The translations under genes and the position numbers were made by a program. DNA of 64,000 nt. Origin: a virus. Its lineage: Duplodnaviria > Heunggongvirae > Uroviricota > Caudoviricetes. Positions 23,926 to 56,928 of this stretch are shown one piece after another. The stretch lies in the IMG/VR virus record IMGVR_UViG_3300008259_000020, positions 34,991 to 98,990 of that record, one strand, 5' to 3'. The first letter of the stretch is position 1; the number at the start of each line of letters is the position of its first letter. The notes below the pieces were generated by a model that saw only the letters and a list, made by a program, of their open reading frames with translations, ran no database searches and was not told the DNA's origin.

Positions 23926-24010
23926 TGGTGCCCACTGCCGGACTCGAACCGGCACTCCAGAGGAAGCAAATTTTAAGTCTGCCGCGGCTACCAATTTCAC
24001 CAAGCGGGCA
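23926..24010 (-). tRNA. tRNA-Leu (UAA), type II, CCA encoded
   Basis: Minus-strand cloverleaf: acceptor TGCCCGC/GTGGGCA, anticodon loop CTTAAAA, long variable arm, T-arm GCCGGTTCGAGTCCGGC, 3' CCA. Confidence 0.75.
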
Positions 24011-24012
24011 TT

Positions 24013-24408
24013 TTATTTTTTATACTTATCACCGGTAACTTGACCGGCACTCATTATAATAACTGGAATACGTTTAATATTCATTTCACGAAATGCAAAG
24101 TAACGATGATGTCCATCAATTACTTGATAAGTGTTTTCTCGTGGAATTCTTCTTACTAGTATTGGAGGTATCTTGCTGATATCTCGTTTTATCTGTTTTT
24201 TAATACTGTTTATATTTGCTCTAGCATCAACATCTTTAGTATCACCTTTACCGTCTCCTTCGAATCTAGATCGGATCTGATTCATAGGCATTACAACAAC
24301 TCGGTTGTATTCGTTTTTAAAATCAGTTACATTGGCACCGACAGTACTGTCACCAGTTTCAGGATCAACGTCTTTGGTTATTTTTGCTACTACTTCAAAT
24401 ATTTTCAT
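24013..24408 (-). CDS. ParB-like nuclease domain protein
   Basis: YQVIDGHHRYFAFRE is the ParB/Srx DGHHR box. Start set at MKIFEVV because the longer ORF would overlap tRNA-Leu(CAA). Confidence 0.55.
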   Translation of the reverse strand: MKIFEVVAKITKDVDPETGDSTVGANVTDFKNEYNRVVVMPMNQIRSRFEGDGKGDTKDVDARANINSIKKQIKRDISKIPPILVRRIPRENTYQVIDGHHRYFAFREMNIKRIPVIIMSAGQVTGDKYKK

Positions 24409-24423
24409 ATAGTATTTATTATT

Positions 24424-24507
24424 TGGTGCCCCAGGAGGGACTTGAACCCCCACGCCTTGCGGCAAAAGATTTTGAATCTTCCGTGGCTACCATTACACCA
24501 CTAGGGC
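24424..24507 (-). tRNA. tRNA-Leu (CAA), type II, CCA encoded
   Basis: Acceptor GCCCTAG/CTGGGGC, anticodon loop TTCAAAA, long variable arm, T-arm GGGGGTTCAAGTCCCTC. Confidence 0.7.
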
Positions 24508-24732
24508 AAAGTGTTGTTTAAAGGTGGCATCAGCACTTGTCTAGTACAAATTTATCGGGCCCAGCTGCGTTCAAACAACTATGTGTCTGTTTTTACACCT
24601 ACGTAAGGACTAGAATGTTTTTTATCCTTACTCCTTTAAACAATATAGTAATTAGCCTAGCAATAACCTATAGCATATCGCCGGGTCGCGGTCGACTCAC
24701 TTCCCTTACACCCCCAAGGTGCAGGCTAAAAT

Positions 24733-24808
24733 TGGTTGCGGTGGGCAGGACTCGAACCTGCGATTTACTGGTTATGAGCCAGTCGAGATGCCGCTTCTCT
24801 ACCCCGCA
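24733..24808 (-). tRNA. tRNA with CAU anticodon (Met, fMet or Ile2), imperfect acceptor/T junction
   Basis: D-arm GAGAAGCGGCATCTC, anticodon arm ACTGG-CTCATAA-CCAGT, T-arm GCAGGTTCGAGTCCTGC. The acceptor pairing has a mismatch or an extra C, so the boundaries are approximate. Confidence 0.5.
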
Positions 24809-24959
24809 ATATTCTGTTTACACATACACCCCAGCGCATTGCGTGTTTCAGTAAAGTTTGGGTGGCCGACCCTCATCTACGGGATGTATGTGTAAACAGA
24901 CTTAACTAGTTGAACAGTCTCGGAAATGGAGTAGTCGCCTACAGCCAAGTGGGTCGGAA

Positions 24960-26095
24960 CTCGAAAACTGTTCAACAAGTTAAGTTAAAAGATATGCCAA
25001 TCCTCTTATCACTTTCCACAAACGGTACCGGTTTTTGAACTAACATATCGTCAAACTTAATTTTTGCATAGGCTGAGATTATGCCTTGCTGTAGGAGCCT
25101 TTGACCATTACCGTTAGCCTTGCGAGCCACGTTCTGTCGTTATCCACAAGAGCCTTTTACGGTCATCTTGTATCTCCCAGTGGTGCCTTTTTTGGAGAGT
25201 GGCGTTTCTCTCGTCGCACGTTGCTACTCGTCCTTCTATCTTTCGTCTGCCTTGCGAGCAGTTCACAGTCGCTAAACCGTTACGCTATCTTTCCGAACAA
25301 CTACATCAGCCTTGCGAGCATCCGTAGACCACATTCTCTTGCGAGTGTGGCATTAACCACCTTTCACAACGTACCGGGACAGTCTTTCGCTTTTGTTTAT
25401 CAAAGAAGGGATTGAACCTTCGCCGATTCCGTTCAATGGAATTGCTCTACCGCTGAGCTATTTGCGAACCTACTTCGATGTGCTGTCCCAGTTGCTTCAC
25501 GTCTTGTTAGACGCAAAATACAACACACCGACTGTCTTTTGCCTTGCGGGCTACTCAACGTCTTTTTAAGTATCCGGGGCCTAACCCTTCCACTCTCAAG
25601 ATGCTAACTTGCCTTTGCTTGCGGGCTCAGACTAGTTAACTACCTGTTAACTTTCGGCATTCGTTAGTTTGGCTGAACAGTGTTTGGGCGCCAACCCTCT
25701 TATCGCTCACCGACCGGCTCTGCGACTATCCTTTCGGACACTATTCCTAACTTACTGCCTACCGCCTTTCTACGGACGGGAGTTGCTTTCGGTACCCGAG
25801 TCAACTCTAGTTCAGGCTTGCTTAGATGGACCATTGCTGGCGCAAGTTTATAGGAAACCTTGCTTTGGGTGCATTACTGCACTTACCCTTACGTGGACGC
25901 TAAGCCGCCCATCTTACTGTGTTTACAACGATATATTGTTTATCTTATCGTCAGTCGATAGACATAGTGGTTAGCATTGCCATTTCAACTTATTGTCAGT
26001 AGCGTGTGGCCCTGTTGTTTCGCTAGGAACCACCCTAGTTACTTGACAGTGCTACTACCCAATATACCTGTGTAAACACAGTGTTTACCAAATTA
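24960..26095. other. ~1.1-kb ORF-poor region inside the tRNA array carrying an iterated 11-13-mer (A)GCCTTGCG(A/G)GC(A)
   Basis: Copies at about 25111, 25251 and 25311 (identical AGCCTTGCGAGCA) and variants at 25341, 25533 and 25616. Only short plus-strand ORFs that look spurious. Confidence 0.4.
25400..25470 (-). ncRNA. degenerate tRNA-like element (D-, anticodon- and T-arms present, acceptor stem unpaired)
   Basis: TAGCTCAGCGGTAGAGC D-arm, ATTCC-ATTGAAC-GGAAT anticodon arm (UGA anticodon with a short variable arm) and GAAGGTTCAATCCCTTC T-arm, but the 5' and 3' ends pair at only 5 of 7 positions. Confidence 0.35.
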
Positions 26096-26200
26096 TCAAA
26101 GAGCGTGTAAACAACTTCTTGCTTACTTGTTTAATATAGTGCATGTTGCACCAAAGGTCAACCACTTTTTTATCTTTTTTTATTTTTTTTTGGAGCGGGT
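26096..26200. repeat. copy A of a ~100-bp dispersed repeat (TCAAAGAGCGTGTAA...TTTTTT...GGAGC)
   Basis: Shares an identical 15-mer TCAAAGAGCGTGTAA and a conserved downstream CTTGC-TTACT-TGTTTA-ATAG-G segment and T-runs with copy B at 28940-29037. Confidence 0.6.
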
Positions 26201-26266
26201 AACGGGATTCGAACCCGTGACCTGGTGCTTGGCAAGCAGCCGCTCTACCCCTGAGCTACACCCGCA
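26191..26266 (-). tRNA. tRNA-Gly (GCC), CCA encoded
   Basis: Acceptor GCGGGTG/TACCCGC, D-arm GCTCAGGGGTAGAGC, anticodon loop TTGCCAA (one C:C mismatch in the stem), T-arm ACGGGTTCGAATCCCGT. Confidence 0.65.
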
Positions 26267-26312
26267 TTTTAAGTTTGTAGTGATTATTAAATTCACTATG
26301 TAGACAATTTAA

Positions 26313-26388
26313 TGGTGCCGGTAGAGAGATTCGAACTCCCCACCTGATGATTACTAATCAACTGCTCTACCAAATGAGCTATACCGGC
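26313..26388 (-). tRNA. tRNA, anticodon ambiguous (loop TTAGTAA, formally AGU; self-complementary TGATTA/TAATCA)
   Basis: Acceptor GCCGGTA/TACCGGC, D-arm GCTCATTTGGTAGAGC, T-arm GGGAGTTCGAATCTCTC and CCA. The anticodon arm GTTGA-TTAGTAA-TCATC has a T:T mismatch. Confidence 0.55.
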
Positions 26389-27092
26389 AAATTATTATAA
26401 AATGGAATAACCACATTTTCAGCAAATGCTTCGTGTTGTTTTCCTGAAGGATGATCATCTCCCGGTGTAGGAAAGTCGTTGGGCATGTTATCTCTAGACC
26501 ATTCGTAGCAACCCTTAACTGGTACAAATCTTGTCCAGTCTACCATTTCTTTTAAATATTCTGTTTGCATAGTATTGACATTACTCTCATCAAATGTGCT
26601 TTGATTCATATTACTAAAAAAGTATTTTATATTATTTACTTTCAAGTAATTTTGCAATCTTAGAATATTTTCATAGGTTCTGATTAAATCAAATGTGTTG
26701 TTTGTATAAATCTTATAATGATTCGTTGAAAATCGACTAGGAAAACTTGCATTAATCAATACCCATTTGCCTGCAGGATCATTTTTTGGCCACGCTAGGT
26801 GACTGGCTTCGGATATGTTTGGCTTTGATAATTGATTTAATACAAATGAGTTTTCTACATAAAATGATGCTCTGTTGGCAGCACTCCACATAACCCCAAC
26901 TACTATATCTTTCGATTCTACATTGTTTTTGAATAAATCATTAACTTGATAAATTGCACGTCTAGCGATATGCTCATTTCCATTACTGCCCAATCCCATT
27001 GGGTAATGGGCATATTTCATTTTTTTTGCAAAATGAAAGGGCCAAGTATGATTGTCGTATGTAAATGAGCATCCGCTTGATACAAAGTGCAT
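26379..27092 (-). CDS. SGNH/GDSL-like hydrolase paralog 2
   Basis: SGCSFTY near the N-terminus and DDHPSG near the C-terminus. Homologous in layout to 19028-19753. Confidence 0.4.
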   Translation of the reverse strand: MHFVSSGCSFTYDNHTWPFHFAKKMKYAHYPMGLGSNGNEHIARRAIYQVNDLFKNNVESKDIVVGVMWSAANRASFYVENSFVLNQLSKPNISEASHLAWPKNDPAGKWVLINASFPSRFSTNHYKIYTNNTFDLIRTYENILRLQNYLKVNNIKYFFSNMNQSTFDESNVNTMQTEYLKEMVDWTRFVPVKGCYEWSRDNMPNDFPTPGDDHPSGKQHEAFAENVVIPFYNNLPV

Positions 27093-27183
27093 ATTTTATT
27101 TATCCCTCATATAGATCTTCGTAATCAATATCGTCATCGTCTTCTAACCAATCGGTATCGGACGAAGTTTGATCAACAGTTTA

Positions 27184-27260
27184 ATGGTCGGAGTGACAGG
27201 ATTTGAACCCACGACATCTTGGTCCCAAACCAAGCGCTCTACCAAACTGAGCTACACTCC
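27184..27260 (-). tRNA. tRNA-Pro (UGG)
   Basis: Acceptor CGGAGTG/CACTCCG, loop TTTGGGA, T-loop TTCAAAT, CCA. Confidence 0.75.
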
Positions 27261-27266
27261 GATATA

Positions 27267-27342
27267 CTGGCTGGGAAGGGTGGATTCGAACCACCAACCA
27301 ACGGATTCAAAGTCCGGTACTCTACCAATTGAGCTACTTCCC
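27267..27342 (-). tRNA. tRNA-Gln (UUG)
   Basis: Acceptor TGGGAAG/CTTCCCA, anticodon arm CCGGA-CTTTGAA-TCCGT, T-arm GGTGGTTCGAATCCACC, CCA. Confidence 0.8.
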
Positions 27343-27348
27343 AACATT

Positions 27349-27431
27349 TTGGTGCGGATAGAGGGACTCGAACCCCCACGCTTACGCACTAGTTCCTAAG
27401 ACTAGCGTGGCTACCATTACACCATATCCGC
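27349..27431 (-). tRNA. tRNA-Leu (UAG), type II
   Basis: Acceptor GCGGATA/TATCCGC, anticodon arm CTAGT-CTTAGGA-ACTAG, long variable arm, T-arm GGGGGTTCGAGTCCCTC, CCA. Confidence 0.8.
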
Positions 27432-27435
27432 ATTA

Positions 27436-27511
27436 ATGGTGCCCCCAGCAGGACTTGAACCCGCGACCCCCTGATTACAAATCAGGTGCTCTACCAGCTG
27501 AGCTATAAGGG
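27436..27511 (-). tRNA. tRNA-Thr (UGU)
   Basis: Acceptor GCCCTTA/TGGGGGC, anticodon arm CCTGA-TTTGTAA-TCAGG, T-arm GCGGGTTCAAGTCCTGC, CCA. Confidence 0.8.
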
Positions 27512-27521
27512 CAAAAACTTT

Positions 27522-27595
27522 TTGGAGCGGGTAACGAGATTCGAACTCGTGACAAGAGCTTGGAAGGCTCGCATGTTACCGCTACACCATACCCG
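27522..27595 (-). tRNA. tRNA-Gly (UCC)
   Basis: Acceptor GCGGGTA/TACCCGC, loop CTTCCAA, T-arm ACGAGTTCGAATCTCGT, CCA. Confidence 0.75.
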
Positions 27596-27602
27596 CATTA
27601 TA

Positions 27603-27678
27603 TTGGCGACCTGTACCGGGATCGAACCGGTGTTCTTCTGCGTGACAGGCAGACGTATTAACCACTTTACCAACAGGC
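27603..27678 (-). tRNA. tRNA-Asp (GUC)
   Basis: Perfect acceptor GGCCTGT/ACAGGTC, anticodon arm TCTGC-CTGTCAC-GCAGA, T-arm ACCGGTTCGATCCCGGT, CCA. Confidence 0.85.
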
Positions 27679-27869
27679 CAAAAGCATCACACACGGCTTA
27701 CAAGTTCCGTCCCACCACTATGTGAAAGGTGTGATGCAACACTGTATACTACGCCGTTCCAAACCAACATCTAGTGTTGATATGCTATTTAAAGCCACGC
27801 ACTGCTATTTCAAACAGTTACTCACGATGCTATGCTTACGCTACTAGGAGGTTCACAGTGTGTTTATTA

Positions 27870-27957
27870 TGGCGGAAGCGGTGAGATTCGAACTCACGGT
27901 ACCTTGCGGTACGCTGGTTTTCAAGACCAGAGCCATCAACCACTCGGCCACACTTCC
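27870..27957 (-). tRNA. tRNA-Ser (UGA), type II
   Basis: Acceptor GGAAGTG/CGCTTCC, anticodon arm CTGGT-CTTGAAA-ACCAG, long variable arm CGTACCGCAAGGTACC, T-arm GTGAGTTCGAATCTCAC, CCA. Confidence 0.85.
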
Positions 27958-27964
27958 GTATATT

Positions 27965-28040
27965 TGGCACAGGAGCAAGGACTTGAACCCTGGACATTCG
28001 GTTTTGGAGACCGACGCTCTACCAACTGAGCTACACCTGC
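27965..28040 (-). tRNA. tRNA-Trp (CCA)
   Basis: D-arm GCTCAGTTGGTAGAGC, anticodon arm TCGGT-CTCCAAA-ACCGA, T-arm CAGGGTTCAAGTCCTTG. The acceptor has one T:T mismatch. Confidence 0.7.
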
Positions 28041-28046
28041 ATATAT

Positions 28047-28121
28047 TGGTGCGGAATGAGAGGGTCGAACTCCCGACAACCTCGGTGTAAACGAGGGGCT
28101 CTACCACTGAGCTAATTCCGC
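28047..28121 (-). tRNA. tRNA-Val (UAC)
   Basis: Acceptor GCGGAAT/ATTCCGC, anticodon arm CCTCG-TTTACAC-CGAGG, T-arm GGGAGTTCGACCCTCTC, CCA. Confidence 0.85.
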
Positions 28122-28124
28122 ATA

Positions 28125-28340
28125 TCACTGTTTACCGCGTGACTAGAAAACTTGCCATCAAAGCGGGATTTGTTAATTGCTTGTTAATCTCTGGGCTTCC
28201 CCGTTAATCTTCAAGTTCTTAACTGGTCTCGGACTGCAACTTTGATACCGTGTTTACTGATTGTGCAGTACTGTTCAAGTTAAACAACTTACACAATGTT
28301 CAACGCGGCTTTTCTAGCCCCTCGGAAAACAGTGATTATA
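28125..28340. mobile_element. ~215-bp insertion-like element bounded by 12-bp terminal inverted repeats inside the tRNA array (MITE-like, or a structured RNA)
   Basis: ATATCACTGTTT at 28129-28140 pairs with AAACAGTGAT(T)ATAT at 28327-28341. Inner arms CTAGAAAAC and GCTTTTCTAG. No ORF, and it occupies the only long gap between tRNA-Val and tRNA-Ala. Confidence 0.35.
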
Positions 28341-28344
28341 TTAA

Positions 28345-28420
28345 TGGTGGACCCTGCCGGGATCGAACCGGCGACATTATGCTTGCAAAGCATACGCTCT
28401 CCCAACTGAGCTAAGAGCCC
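28345..28420 (-). tRNA. tRNA-Ala (UGC)
   Basis: Acceptor GGGCTCT/AGGGTCC, anticodon arm TATGC-TTTGCAA-GCATA, T-arm GCCGGTTCGATCCCGGC, CCA. Confidence 0.85.
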
Positions 28421-28436
28421 GTATATTGGCGGAGCG

Positions 28437-28524
28437 TCTGGGAGTCGAACCCAGTCTACCCTTGCGGGTAGTGCAGATTAGCAATCTGGTGCCTTACCGT
28501 CCGGCCCACGCTCCGTATATTTGG
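28437..28524 (-). tRNA. tRNA-Ser (GCU), type II
   Basis: Acceptor GGAGCGT/ACGCTCC, anticodon arm CAGAT-TGCTAAT-ATCTG, long variable arm, T-arm CTGGGTTCGACTCCCAG, CCA. Confidence 0.8.
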
Positions 28525-28531
28525 CTCCTCG

Positions 28532-28607
28532 TGCTGGGCTCGAACCAGCGACACTTTGATTAACAGTCAAATACTCTACCAACTGAGCTAACGAGGAACA
28601 CTAACTC
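28532..28607 (-). tRNA. tRNA-Asn (GUU)
   Basis: Acceptor TCCTCGT/ACGAGGA, anticodon arm TTTGA-CTGTTAA-TCAAA, T-arm GCTGGTTCGAGCCCAGC, CCA. Confidence 0.85.
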
Positions 28608-34985: not shown

Positions 34986-35399
34986 CTACTTTGTTTCCTT
35001 GGCAATCATTTTGTATCCGTTTCCTGTTGGATGTACACCGTCCTTGCTCATTGGATATGCCCTAGTATCTACGACACTGTCACCAAACTGTTTAGCAATG
35101 ACAAGTGCAGCATACCTAGATTCTTCGTTGTTTGCACTGAGAATCCAAATAACGTCACCCGAGATAAGTTCACGCAAGGCCAGCATTGGCCCATAGGACT
35201 CTACGTAGCCATCATTGGAACCTAGACTAATAATGGTCTTTTTGGATTCAGTTAACACAAAATGTCTATACAAGCCGTTGGCATAATCCTCGGAATTGAT
35301 ACCCGATTTAGCCTGCACAACACATTCTGGCCGCATCTGGCCGATGCCAACTGCAATACTATCGCCTAAAATCAAACATTCAATCATTGTTATCTCCAA
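34986..35399 (-). CDS. SGNH/GDSL hydrolase
   Basis: ILGDSIAVG (block I), GSNDG (block III) and DGVHPT (block V). Confidence 0.6.
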   Translation of the reverse strand: MEITMIECLILGDSIAVGIGQMRPECVVQAKSGINSEDYANGLYRHFVLTESKKTIISLGSNDGYVESYGPMLALRELISGDVIWILSANNEESRYAALVIAKQFGDSVVDTRAYPMSKDGVHPTGNGYKMIAKETK

Positions 35400-35727
35400 T
35401 TAAATTAGACTCTTTGACCGTCTTAAATCGTTCATGATATTCTCGGTCATCAAACGTTTTCTTGTATTGCTCTGCACCAAGGTTGATCAAGTATTCAACG
35501 TGAGCAAGATCACAGTTGGCAGAGGGTTCCTTCAAGTAAGCCAAGTTCCAGCCGTGCCGGTGAACGCAACGACCATAGTAGAGAGCATACCCGTCGCCAT
35601 GCAGTTCGATGGTGTATTGCGGTTCACAAGCACAAGGCTTCAACAGTGTTTCCCAGTCAGTCATAGCATTACTCCTAATACGATTCCAAAAGCAAACACA
35701 AGACCTATAGCACTGATCACATACCAA
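35380..35727 (-). CDS. Cys-rich hypothetical protein (115 aa)
   Basis: ORF with several CxxC-like pairs. Confidence 0.35.
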   Translation of the reverse strand: MVCDQCYRSCVCFWNRIRSNAMTDWETLLKPCACEPQYTIELHGDGYALYYGRCVHRHGWNLAYLKEPSANCDLAHVEYLINLGAEQYKKTFDDREYHERFKTVKESNLIGDNND

Positions 35728-35790
35728 AATGCTGGACCTAAAATCATACCAGCAGCATAGAAAACAAAGTAAGGAAACTCAATAATTTTT

Positions 35791-36213
35791 TTAATCATGG
35801 TCATAAGCCTTCAAAAAGTTTTCCATATACTTGCGAATGTTCTCTGCTCCTACGGGATTCATACTATGAACATGATATCCAAATCCCACAGGCAACCGTA
35901 GTTTGTTATCCATCACATGGTCACAAAACCATTTGGCAAAGGTGTAGCCAGTTTTCTCGCCTGTGTCTTTTTCGTAATGTTCGTCTGCCAAGTCATGGTC
36001 AAAACTGATCATAGTGGGCAAGCCATACTTTTCCACACACCAAACAGCATCATCCATGCTGCGGCAGATCACTACGTTTTTGTAAGGTCCGTAGTTGTAA
36101 CGCACATCACCGGGGAAGCGAATGTCATCTAAAAACAGTGTCCAGGTCATTTTACATTCCCATCCAAGCAGCACATTCATCCCAACGAACGTTGGTAGTG
36201 ATTGACTTTTCAA
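35791..36213 (-). CDS. hypothetical protein (140 aa)
   Basis: ORF immediately downstream of the RNA ligase. Confidence 0.35.
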   Translation of the reverse strand: MKSQSLPTFVGMNVLLGWECKMTWTLFLDDIRFPGDVRYNYGPYKNVVICRSMDDAVWCVEKYGLPTMISFDHDLADEHYEKDTGEKTGYTFAKWFCDHVMDNKLRLPVGFGYHVHSMNPVGAENIRKYMENFLKAYDHD

Positions 36214-37190
36214 TGTGATCCAATATCATAGCACGACCGTCACGATCACCAAAACGACCAAACACATACACAGCCGCAAACGGATCGCGGTTCTTGATCG
36301 TAGGCATCCACTCCTGTGCATAACGCTTGCGATCAAGTCCTGACGCAACAACAGTGTTCCAGTAACGATCATACTTTTCCACAGTGTTGTGCAAACGTTC
36401 TGCAAATCTGCGTTCAAAGTCACGCACACGATCTGCCTGCACTTTAGGCAACATAGGAACAACATCATCAACTTCTTCGTTGAGGATCAAGTTCACAATG
36501 TTACGATCAAACACAATACGATCCACAGTCTTGTGAATACGCACGTACCAGTCGTTCTTGATTTTGCACATGTGACCATCTGCAAAGCGGATGATGTCGC
36601 CTTCACGACCTTCTGCACCACGCTGACGAGCAATGTAGTCAACAAGATTGCCTGCTACACTACCATACTGCGTAACAGTGTTGAACGGACAAGAGATATC
36701 CATTGCATATTCGCCAGTCAAGTTGTCACGAGTACCAAGATACACAAGGTCTGCTGCCTCATAAGCCAGCACAATCTGGTTAAATGGGCTTACCCACTCA
36801 AACAGCGGAGTTAATCCAAGATCAACCATAGTGCGAAGCCATTCCTTCAATCTGCGGTCCTGAGCAGCAAGCCACGCCTCGGCATCCATAGCAACCGACG
36901 TCACTCCCATTTTGGTAGCCAGTCGCAGGTGCCCATCAACCAAGATCGGACGTAAGAGCACCATCAGGACCAAAGATAAGACCACGGCATTCACGACGAA
37001 TCGCACCGCCCAAGTCGTCTGGGCCAGTCATGTCAAAGGTATCGGCCATAGCCACCACATAGTTGACCACAGTATAGCCTTCACGTTCGGCTACGACAAA
37101 TTCGTCACGGCCTTCTACGTGCGGCAGCACATCACTGATGTGACGGATCAGAGGAAAACGGTAGTTCATGATTTTATCCTTGTGTATCAC
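36152..37190 (-). pseudogene. rnlA: RNA ligase 1 (T4 RnlA/gp63 family), apparently interrupted by a frameshift near 36936-37006
   Basis: The N-terminal frame (37190-36936) gives ...YTVVNYVVAMADTFDMTGPDDLGGAIRRECRGLIFGPDG, which matches T4 Rnl1 YRIFSYNYASY...ECRGIMFEMDG. The second frame (from 37006) gives VDGHLRLATKMGVTS...FEWVSPFNQIVLAYEAADLVYLGTRDNLTGEY...DGHMCKIKNDWYVRIH, which matches T4 ...VDYILTKEDGSL...FEFVAPTNRIVLAY...ENETGEY...DGSHFKIKSDWYVSLH. The two frames overlap by about 70 nt. Motif I reads TKMG, not the canonical KxDG. Confidence 0.6.
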
Positions 37191-37225
37191 CTACCCTAGT
37201 GTTATAGCACAAGGATAGGCAGTTG

Positions 37226-37744
37226 TCAATCACTGATTCTGTTGCCATACATGTCGTAGCAGCGAACAGCATCGAATCCTTCGTCAACAGTAGGGCGAAC
37301 AAAACTATCCATCATTGATTCAATTACATGATCAGGAATAGTTTTGCCTGGACGGCTAGCCATACGGTGCTGCCAATCTTCCCACTGGCTATCACCCGCT
37401 GGCAAGAGGATGCACTCGCACTCAACACGATAGCCAGCGTTACGCATACGATTAATGATCTTACGACGCTTGCCAACACCAAGGTTGGTCTGATCCCAGA
37501 TGACATCCTTACGAAGAGTAACTATCGAGTTCAACTTCCGTTCGTTGAACTCCGTCGCAGCCTTAATGTTTAAAGAAAACGCCTCGTTATAAGTGATGCC
37601 GTTGTCTTCAGCAACCGTATCGATATACATATCGGTGCTGTAGATCCAAGTGTCTTCAGAGATCATTCTCTGAATGAGAGTGCTCTTACCGGTAGCAGGC
37701 AACCCAACCATCACAGTACAAGTAGGCATGTTTTCTCCAATCAA
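37226..37744 (-). CDS. polynucleotide 5'-kinase (T4 Pnk N-terminal kinase-domain homolog, stand-alone)
   Basis: P-loop VMVGLPATGKSTL and DQTNLGVGKRRKIINRMRNAGYRV align with the T4 PseT kinase domain (GCPGSGKST ... SDTNLNPERR...). Confidence 0.65.
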   Translation of the reverse strand: MIGENMPTCTVMVGLPATGKSTLIQRMISEDTWIYSTDMYIDTVAEDNGITYNEAFSLNIKAATEFNERKLNSIVTLRKDVIWDQTNLGVGKRRKIINRMRNAGYRVECECILLPAGDSQWEDWQHRMASRPGKTIPDHVIESMMDSFVRPTVDEGFDAVRCYDMYGNRISD

Positions 37745-37950
37745 TACTTAAAGTTTCCACTCGCTTCGTTATCTTTGAAACCAGTCATATATGCTTCGAT
37801 TTCATTAGGAGTCATACGATCCTCAGGAATTAATTCGCTGGATCCGGTGCCACCAACGTAGTAGTGAGGAACACATGGACGACGGTAGTAACTATCAGCA
37901 CCACCGCGATCGTAGGGTCCACCATGACGTCTATCGTTAGATTGAGACAT
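37741..37950 (-). CDS. small Gly/Tyr/Arg-rich protein (69 aa)
   Basis: ORF between the kinase and phosphatase genes. Confidence 0.35.
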   Translation of the reverse strand: MSQSNDRRHGGPYDRGGADSYYRRPCVPHYYVGGTGSSELIPEDRMTPNEIEAYMTGFKDNEASGNFKY

Positions 37951-37976
37951 TAGGTTATTCCTTTTCTATTTATGTA

Positions 37977-38207
37977 TCAGTGACGAACGAGATGAACGCG
38001 GCCAAGGAGCGTAGCAAGAGCGTATTCGATCGCCTCCATCGCCTGCGCCTTGGTAATGTTATTCGAGTCGTACTGTGACTCTGCGAGTTTAATCAGCTGA
38101 GCGAGTTCTTCATTAGTCATACCGCAGATTGCAGTTTTGACTTCTTCGAGGCTATTAAAGGTAGTCATTGTCGTGTTCCTTTTGTTTCCTACAGATATAG
38201 AATACAC
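37977..38207 (-). CDS. small hypothetical protein (76 aa)
   Basis: ORF. Confidence 0.35.
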   Translation of the reverse strand: MYSISVGNKRNTTMTTFNSLEEVKTAICGMTNEELAQLIKLAESQYDSNNITKAQAMEAIEYALATLLGRVHLVRH

Positions 38208-38239
38208 TGATTCTAAACGAATGTAAATAGAAAAGTTGT

Positions 38240-38701
38240 TTAGAAGTCCTCATCACCTTGGTATACGTTGAAAACAAAGATACCTTCTTCACGCCACATA
38301 CGAACAACTCGCGGACGATCGTCAAACACCATGTCAGGCTTACGGCCGTAGTCAGCAATGATCTCGTCAAGGATTTCACGCTTGACAATATCGTCACCAC
38401 GGAAGTCGTCTGCCTTACGCATGTACAGTTTGGCAGTGTAGTTCCAAAAGCGGTTGTCCTGCAACCACTTCATAGTAGCATCACGACTACGCTCGTTGCG
38501 TCCGCTTGCAAAGATGATTTCGTTACCAGCAGCCTTCAGCGAGTGAAATGCTTCTGCAACATATGGATTCACAGCATCGTTTGGAATACCAGCATCAAAT
38601 GCCTTCCAGTTCTTTGGCTTGCTACGAACGTAGTCCAGCCGGTGTTCGATGTTAGCCAGTGTGCCGTCGATATCAAAAACAACTAGCATTTTATCCCTCA
38701 T
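38240..38701 (-). CDS. polynucleotide 3'-phosphatase (HAD family; T4 Pnk C-terminal domain homolog, stand-alone)
   Basis: VVFDIDGTLA (DxDGT nucleophile motif) and FDDRPRVVRMWREEGIFVFNVYQGD align with T4 PseT VIFDVDGTLA ... [24 protein letters not shown]. Confidence 0.7.
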   Translation of the reverse strand: MRDKMLVVFDIDGTLANIEHRLDYVRSKPKNWKAFDAGIPNDAVNPYVAEAFHSLKAAGNEIIFASGRNERSRDATMKWLQDNRFWNYTAKLYMRKADDFRGDDIVKREILDEIIADYGRKPDMVFDDRPRVVRMWREEGIFVFNVYQGDEDF

Positions 38702-38848
38702 TTTATTACCCTATGTGTGTTTATAGCATAAGGTAAACAGTGTGTCAACCTCAATGCCGATTCTTATCTTTGTTTTGGTGGATTATTTCTTTAACTATCC
38801 ACCAAAACAGTGGAATGTAAGCAACTATCATGGCAATACCGAGTGCCA

Positions 38849-39163
38849 TTATTCTACACGAACCTTGTTTTCGTTGGTAGGAACAAAGTCAAAAGTTTCC
38901 GGAGAACTCCAACGACCCATACCAAACAGGCCTGCAACGCTACCCCATTGGCCTACAAAGCCAGTGTACTTGCCTGATTCATCGCGGCAAAGCAAATCTA
39001 CCTGATTGATAGTAGAGTCACCATTGCCCGAACTAAATTCCCAAGACACAATCTCTTTGCAGGGCTTCGCTGGGTAATAAATGGTTTCTGCTGAAACACC
39101 CGAATACATTAGAATCAGTGCCAGCGTAACAGCAACACGGTGAAGTTTGGTTTTCAGTTTCAT
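38849..39163 (-). CDS. small secreted protein with a signal peptide
   Basis: MKLKTKLHRVAVTLALILMYSGVSA signal-like N-terminus. Confidence 0.4.
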   Translation of the reverse strand: MKLKTKLHRVAVTLALILMYSGVSAETIYYPAKPCKEIVSWEFSSGNGDSTINQVDLLCRDESGKYTGFVGQWGSVAGLFGMGRWSSPETFDFVPTNENKVRVE

Positions 39164-39222
39164 GTTAGTGCCTTTCTATTGCCTATGTATTAATATACGA
39201 CAGTTTAGGATTTTGTCAACTT

Positions 39223-39597
39223 CTATTTGTGCAGTGCAAATTGACGCATGTATTCCAGTTCTTCTTCTTTATAAACAAACACCCACATGCAGGTAACTTC
39301 ACTACGAGTAAACACATCACCGTAGTAGTTGCGGTATGGATATGTAGGATCTGTAGTAAATCCCCAGTGTGCAACATTCATTGAGATCTTGCTCATGACA
39401 TCCATGGGCTCGTGCAAAACTAGTGTAGTACCGAAGTTGCGATCTTCACGCCATGCTATTACAGCATCACGAAATTCAAAAACGTCGGGAATCTGTGAGT
39501 CGAAGTCTGCCTGAGCATGGGCAGCCTGTGCCATAGCCTTACCTGGGTTCATATCCCACAGGTCGCGACGCATAACGATGTAAAATCTTGGTTCCAT
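39223..39597 (-). CDS. peptidyl-tRNA hydrolase, PTH2 family
   Basis: YIVMRRDLWDMNPGKAMAQAAHAQ matches the PTH2 signature (V.R.DL.M..GK.AAQ..HA). Confidence 0.6.
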   Translation of the reverse strand: MEPRFYIVMRRDLWDMNPGKAMAQAAHAQADFDSQIPDVFEFRDAVIAWREDRNFGTTLVLHEPMDVMSKISMNVAHWGFTTDPTYPYRNYYGDVFTRSEVTCMWVFVYKEEELEYMRQFALHK

Positions 39598-39656: not shown

Positions 39657-40307
39657 TTAAAGTTCTACATCCACATAGTCAAGAATGCCAATACAATGGA
39701 AATGGGTACGTCCGTACTTGTACTGCATGGTTTTGTGCCAATGTCCAAAGTACCATTCTTCAGGCTGATGAATAGCCAACATACGTGTAAATGCAGCACT
39801 GGTACGGTTAGGATATTCGGGTCCTTTGAGCAAACCACTGTTGAAGAACATTTCTCGACTGACAGTGTTTGGACAATCGTGTGTGATCATCACACGTGGC
39901 CGAACAGTGCTGTAAATGTCAATCATACGCTCTAGTTCTTCTTGGCTGAGTTCTTCCTCAGGCCACCAATCATAACCAGCAGTACGCTTGTACCAACCAG
40001 GAGGTGCATCGGGGTTATCAATGCTCCAAGCACCACCGATGAACATTACATCGTTTTCAACAGTACCGTCTTTGATCCAACCGCTCATCTCCTTACACTT
40101 AGAAGGATTGTCGTGGTTGCCACGGATAAAGCGATGATTGCCAGCAGTGTGATAGTCGTTGATGCTTTCGTGCCAGTAGTCACTTTGACCAAAACCTACA
40201 CCGAAGTCGCCGATTTGGATTGTAGGACCTTCGAACCGGTCGATGGCATAGGTTTTATAATCGTTAACCAGTCCATGAATGTCGCCAATTAGTCTTGTCA
40301 GTGTCAT
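39657..40307 (-). CDS. calcineurin-like metallophosphoesterase 2
   Basis: IGDIHG, GDFGVG, GNHD and GHWH motifs. Confidence 0.7.
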   Translation of the reverse strand: MTLTRLIGDIHGLVNDYKTYAIDRFEGPTIQIGDFGVGFGQSDYWHESINDYHTAGNHRFIRGNHDNPSKCKEMSGWIKDGTVENDVMFIGGAWSIDNPDAPPGWYKRTAGYDWWPEEELSQEELERMIDIYSTVRPRVMITHDCPNTVSREMFFNSGLLKGPEYPNRTSAAFTRMLAIHQPEEWYFGHWHKTMQYKYGRTHFHCIGILDYVDVEL

Positions 40308-40551: not shown

Positions 40552-40627
40552 TGGAGCTCCCGGAAGGATTCGAACCCTCGACCACCACGTTCGAAGCGTG
40601 GCACTCTGACCGCTGAGTTACGGAAGC
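40552..40627 (-). tRNA. tRNA-Arg (UCG)
   Basis: Acceptor GCTTCCG/CGGGAGC, anticodon arm CCACG-CTTCGAA-CGTGG, T-arm GAGGGTTCGAATCCTTC, CCA. Confidence 0.8.
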
Positions 40628-40639
40628 GTAGTATTTATT

Positions 40640-40715
40640 TGGTGCCCCCGGCAGGAGTCGAACCCACAACCTAGGGAGTAGAAATCCCTTGCTCTTCCAG
40701 TTGAGCTACGAAGGC
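40640..40715 (-). tRNA. tRNA-Arg (UCU)
   Basis: Acceptor GCCTTCG/CGGGGGC, anticodon arm AGGGA-TTTCTAC-TCCCT, T-loop TTCGACT, CCA. Confidence 0.8.
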
Positions 40716-40736
40716 TAAATTTCTGACAACTGACAA

Positions 40737-40806
40737 AGTGCAAAGGGACTCGAACCCTTGTCTCCGACTCCACGCCGGCGTCCTATCCTCTAGACGATAC
40801 ACACGA
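40737..40806 (-). ncRNA. degenerate tRNA-like element (Glu-type D-arm, good T-arm, no acceptor pairing, no CCA)
   Basis: TCGTCTAGAGGATAGGACG D-arm (compare E. coli tRNA-Glu), T-arm AAGGGTTCGAGTCCCTT, no foldable anticodon stem and no 3' complement. Confidence 0.3.
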
Positions 40807-41081
40807 TCATTGCAGCACTTTTCTATATCTCGACAACGACATCGAAGTTACTGCAACAAAAGGTCAGTTGCCACGGTGGTTGCCGCCACCTATTCTTTAT
40901 CTCTTATTTATTTCTTGTGTATACTATACATGATCTTTTCACGCATGTCAACGCATATACAGCACCAGCAGCTTATATGTTTAGTTTTCTTGCCACGCAT
41001 GTTGACGTTTGCCGAGGCGGCGCGGTGGGGCGGGCCGATGATCTGCTGGAACAGTTTATCTCGAGAAACACTGAACTCAGC

Positions 41082-41600
41082 CTATTCTAATTCGTCTTCG
41101 AATGGGTATCTTCTCACTGCTAGCAATTTTCTAACAGGATATGCACTAAAGTTAACACTGTTATCTTGATTTCCACCAAGCACCAAATAGTATTCTTGAC
41201 CATTGTGATAGGTTGAAGTTACAAAGAATCCAACATGACCTTTCCAATTGGCATTGCCACGCTTAAACACAACAACATCACCTGATTCTGGTTCGTCTAC
41301 TTCTACGCCCCAATCAAGAAAACTTCTTGCCAGTAGAGGATGTTCTGCATATTCATCAGACCCAGGTAATCCAGTTTCTGCAAGCACTGCATTTACAAAT
41401 GCAGCACACCATTCAGTGGCAACTGGATCAACACCGATAAAATCTTTTATTTCTGCTCTATGACTCTTTTCACTCCACCCTAGTTTTTCTGTTGCAGCAA
41501 CCAATGGTTCTGGCGGTGTCGGTGAAGTAGTAAACAATTGAATTTTTGCACAAGCAGATACTGATAGTAACAGTACTGTTAGTAACATAGCCCTCATCAT
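41082..41600 (-). CDS. secreted CHAP/NlpC-P60-type cysteine peptidase (candidate endolysin or cell-wall hydrolase)
   Basis: Signal peptide MMRAMLLTVLLLSVSACA. Catalytic-type Cys in TEWCAAFVNAVL and His in GHVGFF. A TATAAATA late-promoter-like motif sits just upstream. Confidence 0.5.
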   Translation of the reverse strand: MMRAMLLTVLLLSVSACAKIQLFTTSPTPPEPLVAATEKLGWSEKSHRAEIKDFIGVDPVATEWCAAFVNAVLAETGLPGSDEYAEHPLLARSFLDWGVEVDEPESGDVVVFKRGNANWKGHVGFFVTSTYHNGQEYYLVLGGNQDNSVNFSAYPVRKLLAVRRYPFEDELE

Positions 41601-41648
41601 AAAAATATTTATAGAATAGGTCTAGATAGAAATAGTACAGTTTAACTT

Positions 41649-41724
41649 TGGCACTCCCGGCAGGACTCGAACCTGCAACAATCACCTTCGTAGGGTGGCG
41701 CTCTTCCAGTTGAGCTACGGAAGT
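41649..41724 (-). tRNA. tRNA-Arg (ACG)
   Basis: Acceptor ACTTCCG/CGGGAGT, loop CTACGAA, T-arm GCAGGTTCGAGTCCTGC, CCA. Confidence 0.75.
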
Positions 41725-41730
41725 ATCGTT

Positions 41731-41805
41731 TGGTACCGTGTATAGGATTTGAACCTATTCCGACGCAGTCACAGTGCGGTATGCTACCCTTACACCAAGC
41801 ACGGC
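41731..41805 (-). tRNA. tRNA-His (GUG)
   Basis: Loop CTGTGAC, T-arm ATAGGTTCAAATCCTAT, CCA. The acceptor has one terminal mismatch. Confidence 0.65.
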
Positions 41806-41812
41806 ATTATTC

Positions 41813-41887
41813 TGGTTGCCCCTACTAGATTTGAACTAGTGACCTATCCCTTATCAGGGGATTGCTCTACCACTGAGCTAAGAGGCA
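41813..41887 (-). tRNA. tRNA-Ile (GAU)
   Basis: Acceptor TGCCTCT/AGGGGCA, anticodon arm ATCCC-CTGATAA-GGGAT, T-arm ACTAGTTCAAATCTAGT, CCA. Confidence 0.8.
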
Positions 41888-41988
41888 ATATTCATTGTTT
41901 AGAAGATACACTGACCAATACCATTTCTGGTCCGATAGGTTTATTTTATGTGGCGGCCTAAATGCCACTCAGTGTATCATCAAACCAA

Positions 41989-42064
41989 TGGTGAACCGGG
42001 TGGGATTCGAACCCACGTACTCCGATTAAAAGTCGGGTGCTAAAACCACCTCAGCTACCGGTCC
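41989..42064 (-). tRNA. tRNA-Lys (UUU)
   Basis: Acceptor GGACCGG/CCGGTTC, loop CTTTTAA, T-arm GTGGGTTCGAATCCCAC, CCA. Confidence 0.75.
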
Positions 42065-42123
42065 ACGTTTCGTTTGTCGCTTTCTTCTTTGTTACGTTTT
42101 CGTTTCATTTTTGTTCCTTGAAT

Positions 42124-42201
42124 TGGTGTACCGGGTGGGAGTTGAACCCACGACCTTCGGATTAAGAGTCCGCGGCTCTAACCTGGCTGAGCTACCGGTG
42201 C
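42124..42201 (-). tRNA. tRNA-Lys (CUU)
   Basis: Anticodon arm GCGGA-CTCTTAA-TCCGA, T-arm GTGGGTTCAACTCCCAC, CCA, long D-loop. Confidence 0.75.
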
Positions 42202-42220
42202 ATTAATAGTTGTATGTTTG

Positions 42221-42664
42221 TTAGTTACACCACGACTGCTTTTTGTCGCCGTAGTATTCTCTAGCATAACCTTGTTCAATAAGCATCTGTGTTAGGCTCT
42301 TACCGTCGATAAGAACATCACCTAGCACTCTGCCGCCGAACTTGTCCCACTCATAAAATACAATTTGAGTAGTCTTGGCTTTTGCAACTAAATCTTTTGT
42401 AAATTTACTTGCAGCATCACCCATGTCGCCTTCTTTTTTACATTCTGCTCTGCCACCTTTTTCAGGTGTATCTACGCCCCATACACGAAGTGATAGTTTC
42501 TTCGGAAGTGGATCTAGCAAGAACTTTGCTTCAAATTCAACTGTATCACCATCTACTACACGTAGAATTTTTAAGTCGTGTGCTACACCAGTTGGCTTTT
42601 TTACTTCAGCAAATGCAGTGGATGCAGCAACAATCAGTGCTACAGTTAAAAGTATTTTTTTCAT
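42221..42664 (-). CDS. secreted staphylococcal-nuclease (SNase/thermonuclease) homolog
   Basis: Signal peptide MKKILLTVALIVAASTAFA. ILRVVDGDTVEF and RVWGVDTPEK match the SNase Ca-site and active-site boxes. Confidence 0.7.
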   Translation of the reverse strand: MKKILLTVALIVAASTAFAEVKKPTGVAHDLKILRVVDGDTVEFEAKFLLDPLPKKLSLRVWGVDTPEKGGRAECKKEGDMGDAASKFTKDLVAKAKTTQIVFYEWDKFGGRVLGDVLIDGKSLTQMLIEQGYAREYYGDKKQSWCN

Positions 42665-42709
42665 TATGTTCTCCTAAATACTAGAATATTTATAACAAAA
42701 AAACAATTA

Positions 42710-42785
<76 letters not shown>

Positions 42786-42791
42786 ATATTT

Positions 42792-42876
42792 TGGTGGGAG
42801 AGGAGGGAATCGAACCCGTCCGTGCGTTGCCGCGATGGAGTTACAGTCCACTGCCTCACCTTGAGGCGTCTCTCCC
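42792..42876 (-). tRNA. tRNA-Tyr (GUA), type II (bacterial-type long variable arm)
   Basis: Acceptor GGGAGAG/CTCTCCC, loop CTGTAAC, long variable arm, T-loop TTCGATT, CCA. Confidence 0.8.
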
Positions 42877-42882
42877 TTATTT

Positions 42883-42959
42883 TGGTAGGACATACGGGTT
42901 TCGAACCCGTTTCTCCGCCTTGAAAGGGCGGCGACCTTCGCCAAGAAGTCCAATGTCCC
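42883..42959 (-). tRNA. tRNA-Glu (UUC)
   Basis: Acceptor GGGACAT/ATGTCCT, anticodon arm CCGCC-CTTTCAA-GGCGG, T-arm ACGGGTTCGAAACCCGT, CCA. Confidence 0.8.
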
Positions 42960-42965
42960 ATAGTT

Positions 42966-43040
42966 TGGTGATGTAGGCTGGATTCGAACCAGCAACCTAC
43001 GGCGTATGAGACCGTTGCACTACCGTTGTGCTACCACATC
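42966..43040 (-). tRNA. tRNA with CAU anticodon (Met or Ile2/lysidine)
   Basis: Acceptor GATGTGG/CTACATC, anticodon arm ACGGT-CTCATAC-GCCGT, T-arm GCTGGTTCGAATCCAGC, CCA. Confidence 0.8.
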
Positions 43041-43046
43041 ATTGTT

Positions 43047-43130
43047 TGGAGGTCGGTATGTGAATCGAACACATTACTTTGCAGTGCTATGGAGTTGCAG
43101 TCCATCCCCTTACCATCCGGGCCACCGACC
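43047..43130 (-). tRNA. tRNA-Cys (GCA)-like with an atypical 14-nt extra (variable) region
   Basis: Perfect acceptor GGTCGGT/ACCGACC, anticodon arm ATGGA-CTGCAAC-TCCAT, then AGCACTGCAAAGTA before T-arm ATGTGTTCGATTCACAT, CCA. A long variable arm is not expected for Cys. Confidence 0.55.
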
Positions 43131-56688: not shown

Positions 56689-56928
56689 ATGATTTGGATA
56701 GATTATAATATAACTCAAGCCGGCGGCAATTTTAGAGTCGAAGGTGAATGGCCTGGAGAAGTTATGGGGCTCGACAGACAGGGCAATCCCGGAAACAAGA
56801 AACGTCCGTTGTATCAACCCGGTGATGTTTTTATAGTTAACAAGGATGGGTGGCTTGTTAAACAAGAAGAATTGACATCACTGATGTTAACATATGAGAG
56901 TAAAAAATCTACTTTGTCAGGGCAATAA
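56689..56928 (+). CDS. hypothetical protein (79 aa)
   Basis: ORF after the terminator; its end overlaps the convergent cyclase gene. Confidence 0.3.
   Translation: MIWIDYNITQAGGNFRVEGEWPGEVMGLDRQGNPGNKKRPLYQPGDVFIVNKDGWLVKQEELTSLMLTYESKKSTLSGQ

Follow-up and report, generated by a model that had tools for sequence, protein, structure and literature searches.

RNA ligase 1 of bacteriophage T4 (Rnl1, gp63; PDB 2C5U, 5TT6) and Pnkp are conditionally dispensable and are needed only to reverse the damage inflicted by host anticodon nucleases. T4 gp63 has a dual function, its tail-fibre attachment activity being separable from ligation. Deletions between short direct repeats are known from T4-like phages as classical rII-type illegitimate recombination, and free-standing homing endonucleases give rise to genes in pieces, e.g., nrdA/mobE of Aeromonas phage Aeh1. 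The motif I lysine of the ligase is the residue that is covalently adenylylated in the enzyme-AMP intermediate. Motifs I, Ia, IV, and V are numbered here by the T4 Rnl1 positions of the Shuman-lab mutational work. The physiological role of Rnl1 is tRNA repair, and the roles of the motif I, K75, F77, and K119 residues of the T4 enzyme have been described, as has the motif Ia basic residue of nucleotidyltransferases; Arg54 and Lys75 touch the ATP gamma-phosphate and are essential (PMC6379707).

The locus analyzed here lies in a 64-kb stretch of DNA (the whole stretch, 64,000 nt, is called the window below). The window is phage DNA: it has a gene for an ATP-dependent DNA ligase, and many of its proteins match PHROG families of unknown function. 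Its nearest cultured relatives, at the protein level only, are Synechococcus phages B3 and B23 and Methylophilales phage Melnitz. Besides the rnl matches, the sole clue to these relatives is a 680-aa protein (56909-58951, minus strand) with 48.6% identity to the "adenylate/guanylate cyclase catalytic domain" protein of Melnitz and 34% to that of Pelagibacter phage HTVC008M.

As in T4, rnl is associated in the genome with polynucleotide kinase and phosphatase, and here it belongs to a minus-strand RNA-repair island. The island comprises two Metallophos genes, one of them sub-threshold (39657-40307; 19.7 bits against a cut-off of 21.5 bits), a weak PTH2-like ORF, a HAD_PNKP phosphatase (38240..38701; Pfam, 108.9 bits), two small ORFs (37977-38207, 76 aa; 37741-37950, 69 aa), an AAA_33 P-loop kinase directly upstream of rnl (37226..37744; Pfam, 62.9 bits), rnl itself, and a downstream cREC_REC gene (cyclic-phosphate processing receiver; 35791..36180; Pfam, 73.8 bits), which has 129 aa on relatives and overlaps the rnl 3' end. 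The kinase and phosphatase are likely the 5'-kinase and 3'-phosphatase halves of a split Pnkp and are separate genes here, whereas T4 Pnkp is one fused protein. The kinase length of 146 aa or 172 aa on different contigs reflects the gene caller's choice of start on the same DNA.

Two minus-strand tRNA arrays (23926-28597 and 40552-43130) bracket the island. ARAGORN predicted 30 tRNA genes and Rfam 31, the extra one at 42795-42876. The first array also holds a full-length match to GOLLD RNA (Rfam RF02032; 25070-25531, minus strand; 191.7 bits against a gathering threshold of 150, model positions 1-416), in which a tRNA-Ser(tga) call (25395-25468) is embedded. Two related contigs (L014 and L015) are longer than the window by 618 nt between tRNA-Gln and tRNA-Leu, the additional sequence following window position 27344, within a 228-aa ORF without Pfam match.

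Two reading frames and a missing block of 116 nt

The rnl gene is spread over two minus-strand frames which, as an earlier sequence-only reading had noticed, lie one nucleotide apart; their overlap, put there at about 70 nt, is 71 nt. ORF-A (36936..37169, minus strand) is the N-terminal remnant. It starts at a GTG at 37190 or an ATG at 37169 (MNYRF...) and holds native codons 1-72 (MNYRF...GPDGAL), followed by the out-of-frame residues T S D L G and a TGA at 36936-36938, the stop that had been named in that reading. The protein ends in ...ECRGLIFGPDGALTSDLG, the tail reading ...IRRECRGLIFGPDGALTSDLG up to the stop. On its own, ORF-A has no Pfam match.

ORF-B (37006..36152, minus strand; 284 aa from a GTG) reads MRFVVNAVVLSLVLMVLLRPILVDGHLRLATKMGVTS... 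and ...LRPILVDGHLRLATKMGVTS... Its first 18 codons (MRFVVNAVVLSLVLMVLL; 36953..37006, minus strand) form a spurious head, an out-of-frame reading of the ORF-A coding sequence without homology to anything; homology to relatives begins only at R19, and the best matches span 94% of the query. The remainder (36152..36952, minus strand) is the C-terminal remnant, codons 112-377 (RPILVDGHLRLATKMG...WMGM and stop), in the +1 frame relative to ORF-A. A Shine-Dalgarno-like AAGGA, read from the sequence, is located 7 nt upstream of the ATG at 37169 (37177..37181, minus strand) and serves ORF-A only. Upstream of the ORF-B GTG (37006) or the ATG at 36964 we found no comparable motif, and from this one feature we predict that ORF-B is probably untranslated.

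The same gene is a single 377-aa ORF on more than 25 metagenome contigs, and at least 23 contigs from freshwater metagenomes (JGI and ENA) encode the intact protein, here named P0003. Over residues 1-72, P0003 is the same as ORF-A; over residues 112-377, it is the same as the part of ORF-B that starts with RPILV. Compared with these intact relatives by DNA alignment and BLAST, the window is short of exactly 116 nt, the gap falling between positions 36953 and 36952 (minus strand; ...GCTCTTA joined to CGTCCGATC...). The missing block, TGAGCCGTCCGTTCCAC...GGTAGTATGATC in the intact allele, comprises codon 73 without its first base and all further codons through 111, so that GCTCTTA meets CGTCCG and the peptide encoded by codons 73-111, MSRPFHKFFNVNEREETQTHTVDMSQPHVIMEKMDGSMI, is lost. 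At the junction, the retained A of ATG-73 and the CG of CGT-112 make up an ACG (Thr) codon, and the TGA follows 15 nt downstream, five codons on. Since 116 is 3 × 38 + 2 (116 mod 3 = 2), the reading frame shifts (+1). Alignment to intact orthologs, the check proposed earlier for finding the exact indel, thus did locate it, as a deletion of 116 nt and not as the one-base offset that had been suspected; the region from the ECRG box to the lysine box, then thought to be about 20 aa shorter than in T4, lacks 39 codons compared to intact genes.

The intact alleles (P0003 and P0004; JGI 3300008107-8459 and ENA contigs of up to 297 kb) have the same neighbors and match the window nucleotide for nucleotide to the left and right of the junction, where either flank is 100% identical over as much as 3.8 kb (L006 and L009); they differ by 116 additional nt and by a single 377-aa protein with EKMDGS. 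In the intact allele, CTTATGAGCC and GTATGATCCGTCC stand in place of the deletion junction CTTA/CGTCCG. All 22 population loci that extend across the entire deleted block have the intact junctions, the left one included, and none has the deletion junction; in a 23rd (L034) the left intact junction is missing owing to a deletion of its own. The deletion junction was also absent from the contigs found via phosphatase and cREC look-ups, and the exact products of ORF-A (84 and 77 aa) and ORF-B (284 and 270 aa) were not on record in the look-ups. Exact-pattern scans of viral, metagenome, and genome collections for the deletion junction returned 0, but so did the intact-junction and shared-flank controls, so these scans are uninformative. 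We rejected relocation of the missing block within the window, in which only chance matches of ≤11 nt were found. Two shorter homologs, P0027 (268 aa, starting MIRP) and P0017 (339 aa), start ≤5 nt from a contig end and are assembly-cut, not parallel truncations.

At the nucleotide level, the locus had no match in BLASTN against 50,697 phage records. Protein-level matches in the phage collection were to Synechococcus phages B3 and B23 (55%) and to the RNA ligases of Caulobacter and Sinorhizobium phages. The protein search listed 120 homologs, the closest among them being single ORFs of 377 to 385 aa with 99% identity to ORF-B over the shared part. From its sequence, the locus is a T4-type RNA ligase 1 (rnlA-like) gene with an internal 116-bp loss.

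As to the possibility that the orthologs are two genuinely separate genes, raised in the earlier reading, rnl is a single ORF in 41 of 44 IMG/VR loci, and the other three (L072; L073:1501-3451, IMGVR_UViG_3300005611_000002; L076:36-2024, IMGVR_UViG_3300036944_000817) are split elsewhere, after residue ~193-196, and their C-terminal half has a new ATG of its own. In these relatives, where rnl is a true genes-in-pieces pair of the Aeh1 nrdA/mobE kind, the two ORFs surround an opposite-strand gene, GIY-YIG/SegE-like in L073 (23.4 bits) and HNH-like with an HTH in L076 (HNH, 19 bits, below the cut-off), and thus two different endonucleases occur at the same rnl site; Rfam detected no intron at these split genes. 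The split in the relatives keeps all motifs and adds DNA, whereas the window break (codons 73-111) removes DNA. We found no endonuclease gene at the window break and no Rfam match at the locus, and an endonuclease- or intron-split gene was rejected for the window, where the halves overlap and DNA is missing, not added.

Motifs lost and motifs kept

Comparison of P0003 with the T4 Rnl1 structure (PDB 2C5U) by phmmer aligned residues 59-333 (E = 6e-28). The intact protein has the ECRG Arg, KFF, KxDG, motif Ia, FE, EG, KxK, and a T4_Rnl1_C-like tail of the T4 enzyme, while the window copy is frame-broken and lacks the K75, F77, K99, and G102 equivalents; identity to T4 is ~27-30%. A first alignment with T4 Rnl1, Synechococcus phage B23 gp128, and a Caulobacter phage RNA ligase had indicated ~40 missing residues with the pattern S(R/K)P.HKFFN..E..ET....V..EK.DGS.I. 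Motif I, EKMDGS (P0003 residues 104-109, including the T4 Lys99 equivalent), lies inside the lost 116 nt and is absent from the window, and the same block covers the equivalents of Lys75 and Phe77 (HKFFN), Asp101, and Gly102 in the phmmer alignment.

The remaining motifs are distributed over both ORFs. ORF-A retains the ECRG box (36981..36992, minus strand), whose Arg is the equivalent of T4 Arg54 in the same alignment, so that of the N-terminal ATP-contact residues Arg54 has its counterpart and Lys75 and Phe77 do not. ORF-B retains motif Ia (36905..36916), motif III as FEWVS (36788..36802; T4 NFE159FV), and motifs IV and V as EGDIIRF (T4 E227-G228) and MCKIKND (T4 K240 and K242; both 36551..36604), all on the minus strand. 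The motif Ia sequence, TKMG, had been taken for a motif I without its Asp. This assignment was mistaken: TKMG aligns with Ser118-Lys119 of T4 (F-K-S-K119-G-S) and not with T-K99-E-D-G-S.

KxDGS is kept in all 115 full-length homologs, each of them a single ORF, and the deleted block is better conserved than the remaining protein (mean top-residue frequency, 0.88 versus 0.80). Intact P0003 scores 91.7 bits against Pfam RNA_lig_T4_1 (profile positions 1-227), ORF-B 30.0 bits (cut-off, 28.3; positions 60-227 only), and a hypothetical product in which the two window frames are joined 32 bits (positions 53-227). ORF-B also matches T4_Rnl1_C, the tRNA-specificity domain, over profile positions 2-113 of 122 with 24.6 bits (E = 3e-5), which is below the 27-bit cut-off. 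With motif I in the lost block and the score down from 91.7 to 32 bits, neither a one-base correction nor a +1 frameshift would yield a ligase. The locus, which has the Pfam match and motifs Ia, III, IV, and V but no KxDG of motif I, descends from a member of the T4 Rnl1 family and, as written, would be incapable of acting as a ligase.

Direct repeats and other deletions in the population

The intact gene contains three in-frame copies of TGA(T/G)CCGTC, at codons 7-9 (copy 0; 37142..37150 of the window, minus strand), 73-75 (copy 1), and 110-112 (copy 2), spaced 198 nt (copies 0 and 1) and 111 nt (copies 1 and 2) apart. The whole 64-kb window contains this motif 3 times, where 0.46 would be expected, whereas in the intact gene a span of 310 nt has 3. 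Copies 1 and 2, which extend to an imperfect 16-nt repeat with 14 of 16 positions matching, flank the 116-nt deletion and survive in the window only as a fused CGTCC at 36948-36952. The left end of the deletion coincides exactly with that of copy 1, and its right end lies 5 nt inside copy 2. In register, the loss would be 111 nt and the frame would be kept; the observed junction is 5 nt out of register and has zero microhomology.

A different deletion in rnl was found on an independent contig from another sample (L034; JGI 3300008113 Ga0114346_1000721, 27.8 kb; L034:1093-1130 corresponds to window 36953-37150). It spans 197 nt, breaks the frame, and removes codons 7-72, including ECRG. Its junction, ...CGTTTTCCTC/ATGAGCCGTCCG..., joins the left edge of copy 0 to a point 1 nt short of copy 1, i.e., out of register by -1 nt, and its right breakpoint is 1 nt from the left breakpoint of the window deletion. 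The four endpoints of the two deletions all lie -1 to +5 nt from a repeat copy. Evidently, the repeats guide both rnl deletions and the joins are imprecise. Like rII-type deletions, those in rnl have their endpoints on imperfect direct repeats of 9 to 16 nt; they differ in register, the offset at the junction being +5 nt in the window and -1 nt in L034. A neighboring deletion, in L006, is textbook precise, with 370 nt removed between 10-nt repeats and the kinase P-loop lost.

The 7 kb around rnl harbor at least eight other deletions of 5 to 370 nt among ten contigs, such as a 38-nt deletion at the kinase 3' end in L004. Frame-breaking deletions of this kind segregate in the island, and small deletions are thus normal in this population. 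Comparison of window positions 35263-39232 with L004, L005, L006, L008, and L011 gave deletions of 197, 125, 136, 370, 38, 25, 29, and 5 nt, none divisible by 3. The breakpoints 39035/6, 37960/1, and 35291/2 occur repeatedly, at places where contigs from other samples end.

About 750 nt upstream, in DNA otherwise 100% identical, the window carries a 150-nt patch (37697-37846) with 17 substitutions relative to every rnl-spanning contig. The patch takes in the last part of the 69-aa ORF and the first part of the kinase gene and looks like a short gene-conversion tract. Only L021, a contig that ends inside the patch, comes near this allele (3 mismatches). With an allele of its own, the window is an independent haplotype and not a corrupted copy of a known contig. 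By the contig counts (more than 25 with the intact allele versus 2), the intact allele is dominant in the population, and the window probably represents one haplotype of a large, tRNA-rich freshwater phage.

Origin and consequences of the deletion

We consider the 116-nt gap a genuine, very recent loss-of-function deletion in phage DNA, with a probability of roughly 0.78. Of the three explanations offered by the sequence-only reading, recent pseudogenisation is the one borne out by comparison with the intact alleles. The most likely origin of the deletion is an in vivo event, either imprecise illegitimate recombination or slippage, between the short in-frame direct repeats TGA(T/G)CCGTC; the zero microhomology and the 5-nt offset are atypical of simple slipped-strand deletion and count against this explanation. 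ORF-A would yield a 77-aa stub, and the product of ORF-B, even if translated or joined to ORF-A by a frameshift, would be unable to self-adenylylate. This would cost the genome the sealing step of tRNA heal-and-seal, a pathway made up of the split Pnkp (kinase and phosphatase) and Rnl1. Such a deletion, very recent and confined to one haplotype where the intact allele dominates, would be tolerated because the ligase is required only against host anticodon nucleases.

An origin in vitro or during assembly, i.e., an intact phage gene in which template switching in amplification, a chimeric read, or an assembler error produced the gap, is unlikely but carries some weight. The junction is unique to the window among everything retrievable, its breakpoints lie at short repeats, which favor template switching, and its flanks are otherwise perfectly identical to intact alleles. 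However, repeat collapse or a template switch gives an in-register 111-nt deletion with one TATGAKCCGTCCG copy kept, and the observed CTTA/CGTCCG, out of register and lacking microhomology, offers no k-mer shortcut, so that real junction-spanning molecules would be needed. A hairpin bringing the ends together was rejected as well, since the DNA fold was not significant (z = -1.4) and there were no inverted repeats. The second, different deletion at the same site in the independent L034 sample and the many other small deletions in the population further argue that such variants are biological.

The two rnl deletions could also mean that, in this jumbo-phage population, deletions recur at a hot spot in the 5' third of rnl, where the three in-frame TGA(T/G)CCGTC copies mark off modules (codons 7-72 and 73-111) that disappear independently of each other and never in frame. 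We regard this as very doubtful. If true, it could result from site-specific breakage, e.g., by a nuclease recognising the repeat, or from selection for switching off the ligase, for which escape from a host defence that senses the ligase would be one possible driver. Neutral decay is the alternative.

It is still harder to credit that the fragments are retained for a ligase-independent role, such as T4 gp63-like tail-fibre attachment or a tRNA or nuclease decoy, and that recurrent 5' deletions are selected. Such a role would accord with the shared breakpoint of two independent frame-breaking deletions in the same gene, with the finding that all nine island indels of ≥5 nt and the 197-nt rnl deletion of L034 are non-multiples of 3, and with the untouched putative C-terminal tRNA-specificity domain and motifs Ia to V. 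ORF-B, however, has no ribosome-binding site, and the flanks show 0 substitutions, so the deletions are extremely recent and selection has had no time to show. The dominance of the intact allele also speaks against it, and the other deletions of the island strike unrelated small genes too, which fits general accessory-gene decay.

A programmed +1 ribosomal frameshift or a single-base (homopolymer) sequencing error in an otherwise normal rnlA, the two remaining proposals of the earlier reading, can be dismissed as next to impossible: the overlapping frames one nucleotide apart with a 0-frame stop resemble prfB-type frameshifting in superficial layout only, any join in the overlap omits the 39 conserved codons with the catalytic lysine and therefore cannot be the point of the arrangement, the shift is not conserved in the uninterrupted relatives and leads to no product with all essential domains, the sole ATG that shares bases with the stop (TGATG) leads into a third frame, closed after 11 codons, and the identical flanks of the missing block show no one-base difference.

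For annotation, the locus should be given as an rnlA pseudogene with an internal 116-bp deletion; the labels "frameshifted" and "recoded" should be avoided, and so should any mention of TKMG as a motif I variant. The deletion pseudogene is a minor data point on accessory-gene turnover that involves no new mechanism. It indicates that a large phage with ~30 tRNA genes can spare its tRNA heal-and-seal cassette to the point that some circulating genomes lose it through small deletions. Such loss is unsurprising and fits what is known from T4, where Rnl1 and Pnkp are needed only conditionally.
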